Notes: generated by a model from the sequence alone, not told the origin. A DNA stretch of 64,000 bases from Escherichia coli O127:H6 str. E2348/69 (GCF_000026545.1 NC_011601.1), one strand, 5' to 3'. Shown: positions 25,970 through 32,696, counted from the first letter of the stretch. A program made the numbers and translations.

Positions 25970-26086
25970 GTGAGATAAACAGTGCCGGGTAGATGATTAA
26001 TCCCGGCATATTCACGTTTCCACCACAAAATACCGGGTAACCACTGCTGAATATTGTTCTCTCCTGAGTAGCGTTTATGCTTTAAT

Positions 26087-26113
26087 TGCTAAACCGATTT
26101 AATTAGTTTAGCA
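26087..26113. promoter_or_regulatory. putative ScrR operator upstream of scrK
   Basis: GCTAAACCGATTTAATTAGTTTAGC: inverted half-sites GCTAAAC / GTTTAGC ~25 bp upstream of the scrK start; shares the CTAAACC half-site with the palindromes upstream of scrY. Confidence 0.45.
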
Positions 26114-26133
26114 ATTAGTATATTGGAGCCTTT

Positions 26134-27054
26134 ATGAGCGCAAGAGTATGGGTACTCGGTGATGCGGTTGTTGATTTATTACCCGAAAGCCAGGGGAGAC
26201 TACTACAGTGTCCTGGCGGGGCGCCTGCTAATGTTGCAGTCGGTATCGCAAGGCTGGGGGGGAAAAGTGCCTTTATTGGCAAAGTTGGCGATGATCCTTT
26301 CGGTCGCTTTATGTATCAGACACTGAGTACAGAAAATGTTGATACACGTTATATGTCTCTTGATCCTCAACAACGCACCTCAATTGTGGCTGTAGGACTT
26401 GATGAGCAAGGAGAAAGAAACTTTACCTTTATGGTACGCCCAAGTGCCGATCTTTTTTTACAACCTGATGACCTTCCTACATTTGGGCCGGGTGAATGGC
26501 TCCATCTTTGTTCCATTGCGCTCAGTGCAGAACCTTCCCGAAGTACCGCATTTCTGGCTATGGAGAAAATACGTCAGGCTGGCGGAAACATCAGTTTTGA
26601 TCCCAATATCCGCAGCGATCTCTGGCAGAGTGAAGCGCTATTAAGAAAATACCTTGATCGCGCGCTTTCGCTGGCGAATATCGCTAAATTGTCCGAAGAA
26701 GAGTTGCTATTCATCAGTGGCGAAAGCCAGGTTCAGCAAGGCGCATATTCATTAGTACAACGTTATTCGTTGACTTTATTGCTTATCACACAAGGAAAAA
26801 ATGGCGTACTTGTGTATTTTCAGGGGCAGTTTATCCACTATCCCGCCAAACCTGTTTCTGTCGTCGATACGACCGGGGCAGGAGATGCTTTTGTCGCTGG
26901 ATTACTTGCAGGTCTGGCTGATTCTGGAATACCAACAAATACCAGACAGCTTGAACGAATCATTGCACAAGCTCAGATTTGTGGTGCTCTGGCGACCACG
27001 GCTAAAGGCGCGATGACCGCCTTACCCCGACAACACGATCTCCCTTCACAATAG
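26134..27054 (+). CDS. scrK: fructokinase (ROK/PfkB ribokinase-family)
   Basis: 306-aa ORF with GGAPANVA and C-terminal DTTGAGDAF motifs; first gene of a scr-type cluster. Confidence 0.85.
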   Translation: MSARVWVLGDAVVDLLPESQGRLLQCPGGAPANVAVGIARLGGKSAFIGKVGDDPFGRFMYQTLSTENVDTRYMSLDPQQRTSIVAVGLDEQGERNFTFMVRPSADLFLQPDDLPTFGPGEWLHLCSIALSAEPSRSTAFLAMEKIRQAGGNISFDPNIRSDLWQSEALLRKYLDRALSLANIAKLSEEELLFISGESQVQQGAYSLVQRYSLTLLLITQGKNGVLVYFQGQFIHYPAKPVSVVDTTGAGDAFVAGLLAGLADSGIPTNTRQLERIIAQAQICGALATTAKGAMTALPRQHDLPSQ

Positions 27055-27105
27055 TGATCCTGCTGTTGTATCTGTAACCCGATTTGTCGTGCCTGTCACA
27101 TTTAC

Positions 27106-27177
27106 TAAATCGGTTTAGCGAAAATAATTGCTCTGGCTAAAAAGTCAGCTTTATTATCAACACCTAAACCGGTTTAG
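27106..27177. promoter_or_regulatory. two putative ScrR operators in scrY promoter region
   Basis: CTAAATCGGTTTAG (27106..27119, near-palindrome) and CTAAACCGGTTTAG (27164..27177, perfect 14-bp palindrome), 45-115 bp upstream of scrY. Confidence 0.55.
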
Positions 27178-27221
27178 CATTTTAGCAATTTTTATAATTC
27201 TCTGATGGGACGCGACAAATT

Positions 27222-30170: not shown

Positions 30171-31579
30171 TGTCGATGCCTTCACAAATGCCCGCGATTT
30201 TACAGGCAGTGATGAAAGGTCAGTCCAAAGCACTGGCAGATGCCCACTATCCTTGTTGGCATCTCGCTCCAGTCACCGGACTAATGAACGATCCAAATGG
30301 CTTTTGTTGGTCTGGAGGCCGCTATCATCTGTTTTATCAATGGAATCCACTGGCTTGTGATCATAAGTACAAATGTTGGGGGCACTGGAGTTCGACGGAT
30401 TTATTGCACTGGCAGCATGAACCATTAGCGCTAATGCCCGATAAAGAGTACGACCGTAATGGTTGTTACTCAGGAAGCGCGGTTAATAATCAGGGCGTTC
30501 TCACACTTTGCTATACCGGTAATGTTAAGTTTGATGATGGCAGCAGAACGGCATGGCAATGCCTGGCCACCGAAAATAACCAGGGCGGGTTTGATAAACT
30601 AGGCCCTGTCATACCGTTACCTGATGGTTACACCGGACATGTTCGTGATCCAAAAGTCTGGAAGCACAACAGCCAATGGTACATGGTGCTTGGCGCGCAA
30701 GATAAAGAGAAACGGGGGAAAGTGCTGCTGTATTCCTCTGTCGATCTCTATACCTGGTCTTTTCATGGAGAAATTGCTGGTAACGGTCTGAATGAAATAG
30801 ATAACGCAGGATACATGTGGGAATGTCCTGATCTTTTCGCCCTTGATGGTGAATACATTCTCCTCTGTTGCCCCCAGGGAATGGTGCGCGAACATGAGCG
30901 CTATCTGAATACTTATCCCTGCGCCTGGCTACATGGACAGTTTGATTACGAGACAGGCAAATTTACGCATGGCGCTTTCTCAGAGCTGGATGCGGGATTT
31001 GAATTCTATGCACCACAGACGATGGAAGCCCCGGACGGGCGACGATTGCTGGTCGGCTGGATGGGGGTTCCTGATGGCGAAGAGATGTTGCAGCCAACCA
31101 GAAAGCATCATTGGCAGCATCAAATGACCTGTTTTCGCGAACTCTCATTCCAGAAGGGAAAATTGTTTCAGATGCCAATCAGGGAACTCGCGCAACTGCG
31201 TGAAGCTGAACACTTCTGGCAAGGAAAAGCGGATCATGCGCCGCATGTCGAAATTGAACGCCTGGAAATGGACATCATTCCGTCGGGTGAGCTGTATCTG
31301 AATTTTGGCAATGCGCTGGCACTGCATCTTAATGACGATGGTATTCAACTACAGAGGAGAAGCCTTGCAGGGCAAGAGAAACTAACTCGTTACTGGCGAG
31401 GAAGCGTAACGTCACTGAAGATTCTCTGTGACAGTTCCAGCGTAGAGATATTCATCAATAATGGTGAAGGTGTAATGAGTAATCGTTATTTTCCCCATCA
31501 TCCAGCTTCGCTGATATTACAGGGTGAGTCTGACGTCACGTTACGCTACTGGTCGCTACGCGCCTGCATGGTAGAATGA
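30170..31579 (+). CDS. scrB: sucrose-6-phosphate hydrolase (GH32 invertase)
   Basis: 469-aa ORF with GH32 signature MNDPNG and downstream W(M)ECPD; start codon choice near 30170 uncertain. Confidence 0.88.
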
Positions 31580-31604
31580 GGGTTTTGAATTACGGATCCT
31601 CGTC

Positions 31605-32612
31605 GTGAGAAAAACCAAACGCGTTACTATTAAAGACATTGCTGAACTGGCGGGAGTGTCGAAAGCAACCGCCAGTCTGGTTCTCAATGGTCGTGGCAAA
31701 GAGTTACGTGTTGCGCAGGAAACGCGTGAGCGTGTGCTGAGTATTGCCCAACAGCAGCATTATCAGCCCAGCATTCATGCCCGCTCATTACGGGACAACC
31801 GCAGTCATACCATTGGTCTCGTCGTTCCTGAAATCACTAACTACGGATTTGCAGTATTTTCCCATGAACTGGAAACATTGTGTCGGGAAGCGGGCGTCCA
31901 GCTCCTCATATCCTGTACTGATGAAAATCCTTCACAGGAAACAATGGTGGTGAACAATATGATTGCCCGCCAGGTTGATGGGTTAATCGTCGCATCCAGT
32001 ATGCTGCATGATAATGACTATCAAAAACTTAGCGAGCAATTACCTGTTGTGTTGTTCGATCGCCACATGAACGGCAGTACATTGCCATTGGTCATTACTG
32101 ACTCTGTTTCTCCCACCGCCGCTCTGGTGGCAGATATTGCACGGAGTCACCCGGATGAATTCTATTTTCTGGGCGGACAACCCCGTTTGTCACCGACTCG
32201 CGATCGACTGGAAGGATTTACACAAGGCTTGCAGCAAGCCGGAGTAACGCTACAACCTGAATGGATTATTCACGGTAATTATCATCCGAGCTCAGGCTAT
32301 GAAATGTTTGCCGCGCTATGCGCTCGTTTAGGACGTCCCCCTAAAGCCTTATTCACTGCCGCTTGTGGATTACTGGAAGGCGTTCTGCGCTATATGAGCC
32401 AATATAATTTACTCGACAGTAAAATACACCTGGCGAGTTTTGATGATCATTACTTGTATGATTCACTTTCGGTAAGAATCGACACAATACAACAGGATAA
32501 TCGCCAACTTGCTTTTCACTGCTTTGAACTTATTTCGCAACTGATTGAAGGTGAAACGCCATCCCCATTACAGCGTTATCTTCCTGCCAGTCTACAAAAA
32601 CGCTACCGATAA
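31605..32612 (+). CDS. scrR: LacI-family transcriptional repressor of the sucrose regulon
   Basis: 335-aa ORF (GTG start) with N-terminal [26 protein letters not shown] and periplasmic-binding-protein-like effector domain. Confidence 0.85.
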
Positions 32613-32628
32613 TCCCGTCACTATCTTG

Positions 32629-32660
32629 CATCGCCCCTGTAAAACGGGGCGATTATTTTC
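32629..32660 (+). terminator. intrinsic terminator after scrR
   Basis: ATCGCCCC-TGTAAAAC-GGGGCGAT hairpin followed by TATTTTC. Confidence 0.6.
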
Positions 32661-32696
32661 ATCCTGAACGTTAAATATTAATGATGAATAATCAAA

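Follow-up and report, generated by a model that had tools for sequence, protein, structure and literature searches.

How did a complete sucrose regulon come to lie between ygcE and queE in enteropathogenic Escherichia coli (EPEC) O127:H6 str. E2348/69, and what occupied this site before it arrived? We analyzed a 64,000-nucleotide stretch of this genome (NC_011601.1; hereafter, the window), in which scrK, scrY, scrA, scrB, and scrR form five intact open reading frames (ORFs), all on the + strand, between ygcE (+ strand) and queE (- strand). A first-pass annotation, made from the sequence alone, had reported a complete, co-directional scrKYABR regulon between these two genes, with gaps of 164 bp to ygcE and 84 bp to queE. 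Over the 10.2 kb compared, the window is 100% identical to the E2348/69 chromosome. The gaps are exact, and the gene content is borne out by the ORFs, by matches to NCBIfam and Pfam, and by alignment to the sucrose porin in PDB entry 1A0S. We consider it very likely that this is the native scr regulon of phylogroups B2 and F; that it replaced the CRISPR-II locus (CRISPR, short palindromic repeats that are clustered and regularly interspaced) in a single event, probably by illegitimate recombination; and that it has since descended mainly vertically.

What occupied the ygcE-queE site

The first-pass annotation also had ygcE directly beside queE in K-12, and it named an error in this adjacency as something that would undo its interpretation, which in part is what we found. 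In K-12-type genomes, the two genes are separated by a 1,372-bp spacer with an annotated CRISPR array. Within it are degenerate repeats, an array of 7 type I-E repeats, and the I-E leader, which together are known as the CRISPR-II locus (CRISPR2.2-3). Homology between the window and K-12 stops at 25974, which is 5 bp past the stop codon of ygcE, and restarts at 32695, which is 2 bp before the stop codon of queE. The breakpoints are at 25974/25975 and 32694/32695, and the scr block is 6,720 bp (25975-32694). Because homology ends at the edges of both genes, we conclude that the whole spacer was replaced by 6,720 bp of scr DNA, which was not inserted into it. The earlier description of scr as an acquired insertion is thus half right: the locus is variable and has the marks of acquisition (it is absent from ~85% of complete E. 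coli genomes and has a low GC content at third codon positions, or GC3), but it is not a simple insertion.

A residual CRISPR-II locus in the window is ruled out. Even if 3 mismatches are allowed, the 29-bp type I-E repeat is not found anywhere in the 64 kb, and the scr block has no similarity to the K-12 spacer and no match to Rfam. Losses in E2348/69 extend to the cognate cas operon and to CRISPR1. In K-12, the interval between iap and cysH contains the type I-E cas operon and CRISPR1. In E2348/69, the corresponding interval (7496-10909) has only a Hok/Gef toxin gene (hok, 8658-8810) and a truncated pseudogene for the integrase core of an insertion sequence (IS; 8872-9906) between iap (7496-8533) and cysH (10175-10909). 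Given the content of this interval, and with scr at CRISPR-II, E2348/69 is without any component of a I-E system.

Which of the two states is older? FDAARGOS_1261 is a close relative of E2348/69 (their YqcE and QueE proteins are identical) with an "empty" allele of 412 bp, which comprises the hairpin of ygcE, one CRISPR repeat, and the I-E leader. Since this allele keeps a repeat and the leader, a CRISPR locus seems to be the background state even in the lineage of E2348/69. More broadly, CRISPR2 is beside ygcF (queE) in all of the Escherichia and Salmonella genomes examined by Touchon and Rocha, except for some B2 strains and Shigella (PMC2886076). This distribution implies that the CRISPR locus is ancestral and that scr is derived, so the 6.72-kb block would be a derived allele of the ygcE-queE intergenic region.

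The replacement of CRISPR-II by scr beside queE is already known (2007-2010 onward; PMC2886076, PMC11251922, PMC12736100). According to Touchon and Rocha (2010, PMC2886076), strain SMS-3-5 lost CRISPR2 to an inserted sucrose operon. Stephens et al. (2024, PMC11251922) described, for strains of B2 and F, a 6.7-kb scr locus beside queE, at the position of the CRISPR2 array of scr-negative strains; in their account, scr takes the place of ~0.5 kb and has neither IS nor transposable elements at its flanks, and earlier notes on the locus are credited to Diez-Villasenor 2010 and Trevino-Quintanilla 2007. In a 2025 survey of 237 uropathogenic strains, the site held CRISPR in 46%, scr in 47%, and nothing in the remainder (PMC12736100).

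The composition of the scr block departs from that of its host, as a GC profile suggested by the first-pass annotation confirmed. The block has a GC content of 46.8%, versus 50.5% for the window, and the GC3 of the scr genes is 0.38-0.48, versus 0.52-0.61 for five of the six flanking genes (ygcE, yqcE, queE, eno, and pyrG). The sixth, ygcG, is itself atypical, with a GC3 of 0.371. The order scrKYABR is found in ~70 species of Enterobacterales. Among representatives of 80 other species with scrKYABR, none has scr beside ygcE, queE, or eno, and none qualifies as a donor with scr next to ygcE or queE. The nearest versions from outside E. coli are up to 83% identical for ScrY (from Kluyvera, Citrobacter, Enterobacter, and Lelliottia), ~68% for ScrB, and 64-74% for ScrK. 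Comparison to the scr regulons of pUR400 and Klebsiella, also suggested by the first-pass annotation, revealed the same organization but a distinct allele: we estimate by eye that ScrY is only ~80% identical to the pUR400 porin in 1A0S, which rules out pUR400 as the source.

Junctions and the number of founding events

To describe the junctions, we used 25970-26030 (left) and 32614-32694 (right) as queries against 5,426 complete genomes of E. coli. scr is present at ygcE-queE in 840 of these (~15%), including O25b:H4-ST131. The novel sequence at the left junction is 43 bp (25975-26017, + strand) and at the right junction is 81 bp (32614-32694, + strand). Both are found in the same 840 genomes, once each, on the chromosome, and never without scr. 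Identical junctions in 840/840 carriers imply a single founding event, so this comparison indicates that scr was established at ygcE-queE once.

Neither the 43 bp nor the 81 bp has a match in the K-12 allele, the "empty" allele, or the scr flanks of the 80 other species. Only the operator region of scrK is conserved in those flanks, which rules out the idea that the junction sequences are native scr flanks of other species. Metagenomes did not reveal a donor context for the right junction either: all 16 contigs with the hairpin from this junction are colinear with scrR-queE. Similarly, the exact ScrR protein was found in 10 distinct neighborhoods, all of which are ygcE-scr-queE and differ only further downstream. 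On the metagenome contig Ga0192259_1120 (1-1274), the 3' terminus of ygcE (from window 25842 on) directly abuts a LemA-family gene on the reverse strand, upstream of scr; this join reflects a local rearrangement or else a chimeric assembly.

In 8 scr-positive strains, the divergence of scr at third codon positions correlates with that of ygcE and queE (r = 0.83). The mean divergence is 1.6% for scr, 7.0% for ygcE and queE, and 2.7% for yqcE, eno, and pyrG. This pattern appears to be mostly compatible with long co-residence and vertical descent.

That the divergence of scr tracks the divergence of its flanks would also be expected if scr were ancestral at this site, whether in E. coli as a whole or in the stem of B2/F/G, and had given way to CRISPR-II in the other lineages. 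Phylogroups B2 and F branch early, and Stephens et al. describe the locus as "native" to a sub-branch of B2 (PMC11251922). We find this scenario extremely improbable, as CRISPR2 is next to ygcF in all Escherichia and Salmonella examined other than some B2 strains and Shigella (PMC2886076), and the close relative of E2348/69 retains the repeat and leader. Also, the GC3 of scr is clearly below that of five of the six flanking genes, scr is at this site in none of the 80 other species, and scr is less diverged than its flanks.

Another alternative is that ygcE-[scr]-queE was imported whole, by homologous recombination from an unsampled close relative. The crossovers would lie inside ygcE and queE, and the junctions would be the donor's intergenic DNA. 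This would account for breakpoints that coincide with the ends of coding sequences, as expected for shared genes with unrelated intergenic DNA between them, and for junction sequences that have no source in E. coli. ygcE and queE also vary unusually much, differing at 4-12% of third positions among scr-positive strains, and scrA is present in ~12% of E. albertii genomes (PMC11251922, Table 2). However, scr is beside ygcE, queE, or eno in 0/80 species with scrKYABR, so a donor is lacking, and import would only relocate the founding event to another lineage. queE diverges from K-12 (87-89% at its 3' end), and so does the queE of the scr-less "empty" allele (100% and 96% for these two sliding windows). 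Because a scr-less close relative has it, this divergence is a trait of the lineage, and we can rule it out as a tract of imported DNA that is linked to scr. Overall, we view import of the entire segment as unlikely.

Mobile relatives and the mode of arrival

Although the scr block in the window has no mobility genes, nearly the same core is found in mobile DNA. The core (26018-32613) is 99.0-99.2% identical in the pheV-tRNA island of NCTC9966, which has a tyrosine integrase and is comparable to CTnscr94 of Salmonella Senftenberg, and on ~22 IncF conjugative plasmids from extraintestinal E. coli. The mobile copies sit among integrase, IS, and tra genes, of which the window copy has none, and the copy in NCTC9966 has the features of a genomic island (a tRNA, an integrase, and flanking direct repeats). 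The island and plasmid copies share a longer module of 7,074 bp, which extends 16 bp further left and 460 bp further right than the chromosomal core. They also share 12 private substitutions, and neither of the window's junction sequences (43 bp and 81 bp) is present in them. Outside of 26018-32613, the chromosomal and mobile versions are alignable but far more diverged, and the last codons of scrR differ synonymously. The longer shared module and the private substitutions imply that the mobile copies are a sister lineage of the chromosomal allele; they are not obviously its parent or its offspring.

Some further details of the mobile copies follow. The 460 bp downstream of scrR that is common to the island and plasmid modules (NCTC9966, stretch positions 11985-19057; NZ_CP023959.1, stretch positions 7985-15058) is absent from the ygcE-queE allele. 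In the IncF plasmid NZ_CP023959.1, the module is in the leading region, between two inverted copies of IS1A that are ~14.5 kb apart (stretch positions 647-1344 and 15850-16547). In NZ_CP068847.1, there is an IS2 inside the scr block.

We looked for signs of mobility in the window itself. The first-pass annotation had noted the absence of an integrase, transposase, or tRNA at the junctions, and this agrees with ARAGORN, which found no tRNA in the 64-kb window, and with the RefSeq annotation, which has no mobility genes within ~16 kb (the nearest is the IS integrase pseudogene at 8872-9906). The ends of the block have no terminal inverted repeats beyond a chance 9-bp match, and there are no remnants of a transposase or integrase. 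An 8-bp direct repeat, TAATCCCG, is found near both edges of the module, at 25998-26005 and 32610-32617. We noticed it post hoc, and between end segments of ~110-130 nt, chance alone should yield ~0.5 shared 8-mers, counting both direct and inverted ones. Terminal inverted repeats or a target-site duplication can therefore be set aside, as the 8-bp direct match and the 9-bp inverted match are both near chance. So, the comparison of the junctions to K-12 that the first-pass annotation proposed did locate the breakpoints, at the two stop codons, but yielded no direct repeat above chance level. Of the features of a classical genomic island, the window copy has the deviating base composition, but not a tRNA or tmRNA, an integrase, or att repeats. 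Of the features of a composite transposon or IS element (terminal inverted repeats, a target-site duplication, and a transposase), it has none.

Could a mobile element nevertheless have brought scr to this site and later lost its mobility genes? In this scenario, an IS composite transposon, an integrative element, or a circular intermediate integrated via TAATCCCG. The repeat is close to both edges of the segment that is shared with the mobile copies; the same core is found in the pheV island with its tyrosine integrase and on IncF plasmids where it is flanked by IS1 copies; and the left edge of the shared module is within a few bp of one position in all three contexts. Besides the chance expectation for 8-mers and the lack of inverted repeats or of transposase or integrase remnants, the right copy of TAATCCCG overlaps the native stop codon of scrR, and the unoccupied site that this scenario predicts, GATGATTAATCCCGTCACTATC, occurs in none of the 5,426 E. 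coli genomes and nowhere in the metagenome collection. Moreover, simple integration would not delete the whole CRISPR locus from edge to edge. We give this scenario very little credence.

In our preferred reading, foreign scr DNA would have replaced the entire ancestral CRISPR-II locus, both repeats and leader, in a single event. The mechanism was probably an illegitimate, end-joining-type recombination, as opposed to transposition or site-specific integration: a one-off replacement that was not site-specific appears most likely, and illegitimate recombination is the simplest way to obtain it. Later inheritance would have been mainly vertical, and any transfer between lineages was likely by homologous recombination through the conserved flanks. 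A sister copy of the scr core also circulates on the pheV integrative island and on IncF conjugative plasmids.

Several observations weigh against this reading. Illegitimate recombination is inferred solely from the absence of other signatures. The breakpoints, at 5 bp and 2 bp from stop codons, are neater than a random event predicts, and they also fit the import, by homologous recombination, of DNA from a relative that already had scr at this position. The 43-bp and 81-bp junction sequences match no source among the sequences searched. Finally, scr is less diverged (1.6%) than its flanks, so it is possible that scr was acquired later and that there was some spread between lineages afterwards.

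A more speculative idea is that orphan CRISPR arrays, in lineages without cas genes, are preferred sites for landing or replacement, either because the repeats promote breakage and recombination or because loss of the array is favored. The loss of the array from edge to edge would then not be a neutral accident, and TAATCCCG would mark the microhomology-mediated capture of a circular scr intermediate from the plasmid or pheV-island module. We mention this idea as a quite unlikely extension of the replacement scenario.

The regulon, its relatives, and its surroundings

Four of the five scr proteins (all but ScrY) score above the curated cut-offs of NCBIfam, with full-length coverage of the profiles. 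ScrK (26134-27054, + strand) is an ATP-dependent fructokinase of the PfkB family, as identified by Pfam and by NF006957 (511 bits versus a cut-off of 450; profile positions 2-302 of 302). ScrA (28800-30170, + strand; 456 amino acids) is the sucrose-specific Enzyme IIBC of a phosphotransferase system (PTS): it matches TIGR01996 (650 bits versus a cut-off of 559; model positions 2-460 of 461). ScrB (30170-31579, + strand) is a sucrose-6-phosphate hydrolase from family GH32 (TIGR01322, 548 bits versus a cut-off of 356), and its start codon overlaps the stop codon of scrA by 1 nt. ScrR (31605-32612, + strand) is a LacI/FruR-type repressor (TIGR02417, the fructose/sucrose repressors of the LacI type; 463 bits versus a cut-off of 390; profile positions 1-326 of 327). 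ScrY (27222-28739, + strand) is a sucrose-specific outer-membrane porin of the LamB family with an N-terminal extension; its residues 93-505 align to all 413 residues (1-413) of the ScrY structure 1A0S (E = 2e-226). The domain architectures, which we took from precomputed Pfam matches to identical proteins, are consistent with these assignments: ScrA has EIIB and EIIC domains (PTS_EIIB and PTS_EIIC) but not EIIA, ScrY has Sugarporin_N and LamB, and ScrB has the N- and C-terminal GH32 domains (Glyco_hydro_32N and Glyco_hydro_32C). ScrR and ScrA are identical to proteins from an ST131 genome, and ScrR is also identical to that of an IncF plasmid copy.

Both flanking genes are conserved. On the left, ygcE (24491-25969, + strand; ORF call and RefSeq annotation) encodes a sugar kinase of the FGGY family, and its homology to K-12 extends to 25974. 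On the right, queE (also known as ygcF; 32697-33368, - strand) matches TIGR04322 (369 bits), and homology to K-12 begins at 32695.

Potential operators are confined to two regions of the window. A search for the 14-bp operator palindrome of LacI/FruR-type repressors (CTAAACCGGTTTAG) across the 64 kb yielded 3 matches, at 26089, 27105, and 27164, versus 0.17 expected; one of these is 5' of scrK and two are 5' of scrY. The regulatory region of scrK (26083-26117, + strand), identified by inverted-repeat and motif searches, is a palindrome with 17-nt arms that holds a ScrR-type operator at 26089-26102 (CTAAACCGATTTAA), and this operator region is 87-95% conserved 5' of scrK in Kluyvera, Klebsiella, Raoultella, and Edwardsiella. 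The putative promoter region of scrYAB (27085-27177, + strand) was identified with a promoter scan and the operator motif search. It contains a predicted sigma-70 promoter at 27101-27128 (TTTACT, 16 nt, AATAAT; + strand), the operator O1 at 27105-27118 (+ strand), which overlaps this promoter, and the operator O2 at 27164-27177 (+ strand), which is the perfect palindrome CTAAACCGGTTTAG. Abutting the -35 element is a site at 27085-27100 (+ strand) that resembles sites for the cyclic AMP receptor protein (CRP). It is a match with 2 mismatches and has positional support only: its position is apt, but across the window the motif is about as frequent as chance predicts, so we did not accept it as a CRP site. 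Overall, the layout matches, by analogy, the two-operon, ScrR-repressed organization of the pUR400 and Klebsiella regulons.

Each junction also includes a hairpin. The hairpin on the left (stem 25982-25989 / 26002-26009 with a 12-nt loop, + strand; RNA fold -16 kcal/mol, z = -2.9) is 3' of ygcE and may terminate its transcription. On the right, a terminator scan predicted an intrinsic terminator for scrR, with a stem-loop at 32630-32653 (+ strand; fold -15.2 kcal/mol, z = -3.8) that is followed by TATTTTC.

Together, these genes and sites suggest how the regulon would work. Sucrose would cross the outer membrane via ScrY and would be taken up and phosphorylated by ScrA (EIIBC), with phosphate from the host's EIIA-Glc (Crr). 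ScrA lacks an EIIA domain, which implies dependence on Crr by reference to the prototype systems: for the scr regulons of pUR400 and Klebsiella, dependence on EIIA-Glc is established. ScrB would then cleave sucrose-6-phosphate to glucose-6-phosphate and fructose, and ScrK would phosphorylate the fructose. ScrR is expected to repress the promoters of scrK and scrYAB, via the three operators of the TAAACC-GGTTTA type, until the inducer is present. In the pUR400 and Klebsiella regulons, the inducer of ScrR is fructose or fructose-1-phosphate, and the scrY promoter depends on cyclic AMP and CRP.

The regulon in E2348/69 is probably functional, to judge from its sequence. When cloned, the scr locus of E. 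coli SCU-147 conferred rapid growth on sucrose on MG1655, and 20 of 24 scr-positive isolates were Suc+; growth on or fermentation of sucrose was also shown by experiment for ST131 and ST1193 isolates (Stephens et al. 2024, PMC11251922). In F/ST62 strains, an insertion of IS3 in scrY reversibly abolishes growth on sucrose (Stephens et al., PMC11251922).

How does this regulon compare to known systems? It is an intact and unexceptional representative of the scr family of enterobacteria, and it has every feature of the pUR400/Klebsiella type that can be read from sequence (gene order, an EIIBC without EIIA, the porin, GH32 and PfkB enzymes, and the repressor with its operators). The biochemically characterized prototypes, from the Salmonella plasmid pUR400 and from Klebsiella pneumoniae, have the identical scrK-Y-A-B-R organization. 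They share the EIIBC without IIA, the GH32 hydrolase, the LamB-type porin with an N-terminal extension, and the LacI/FruR-type repressor, as well as the placement of the operators, with one region at scrK and two at scrY. The proteins of K. pneumoniae ATCC 13883 are 69% (ScrK), 74% (ScrY), 91% (ScrA), 66% (ScrB), and 85% (ScrR) identical to those of E2348/69. Unlike scr of pUR400, the scr of the window is chromosomal, at a site that is specific to E. coli, and is a distinct allele.

The chromosomal "native" scr of other B2 and F strains (SCU-147 and the ST131 and ST1193 isolates in Stephens et al. 2024; SMS-3-5; and the phylogroup F isolates of Trevino-Quintanilla 2007) has the same genes, order, and position on the queE side. 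As in the window, it replaces the CRISPR-II site and has no flanking IS, and we see no substantive difference. Two aligned chromosomal copies, from MRY15-117 and from the ST131-type AVS0153, differ from the scr core of E2348/69 by ~0.5%. The csc (non-PTS) locus at argW, which alternates with dsdCXA, is likewise a sucrose cassette at a polymorphic site with mutually exclusive alleles (PMC11251922). However, csc has unrelated genes (the permease cscB, the invertase cscA, cscK, and cscR), is at another site, near a tRNA, and supports slower growth on sucrose.

The scr locus would explain the rapid use of sucrose by major pathogenic lineages (ST131, ST1193, and EPEC E2348/69), and it is a candidate module for engineering growth on sucrose feedstocks. 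It is also a clean case of a single intergenic site whose alternative alleles, a metabolic operon and an immune-memory locus, exclude each other. Practical interest in it is modest, and all of this is in the literature. What we add are the breakpoints, to the base pair, at both flanking stop codons; the evidence from 840 carriers for a single founding event; the demonstration that IncF plasmids and a pheV island also carry the native, B2-type scr core, a distribution that Stephens et al. did not see in their collection; and the finding that the closest scr-less allele keeps one CRISPR repeat and the leader.

The region around scr varies in other ways. In STEC1587 (NZ_CP129259.1), queD is directly followed by a 3' fragment of ygcE and then by the CRISPR-II array (stretch positions 2501-5928). 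A block of ~11 kb, from ygcN to yqcE, appears to be deleted, which is another sign that the region is structurally unstable. A second polymorphic site lies between queE and eno; in the window, 33369-34534 spans ygcG and the spacer between queE and ygcG. E2348/69, ST131, and K-12 have ygcG alone, in a stretch with a GC content of 36-40%; other strains, whether scr-positive or scr-negative, have a LemA gene and a three-gene TPM-domain cluster in its place, and the scr allele occurs with both variants. Of yqcG, K-12 has an intact copy and ST131 a frameshifted one; none is annotated in E2348/69. Also within ~7 kb of the scr site, mazEF (~38.7-39.3 kb, between mazG and relA) is a third segment that is polymorphic for its presence: E2348/69 has it, and ST131 and several other scr-positive strains do not, with mazG adjoining relA in these.

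Upstream of scr, the divergent intergenic region between ygcW and yqcE contains a perfect match to the CRP consensus (TGTGATCGTAATCACA, 22994-23009) and a site with 1 mismatch (23051-23066). This suggests that the sugar transporter and kinase pair yqcE-ygcE may be under the control of cyclic AMP and CRP.

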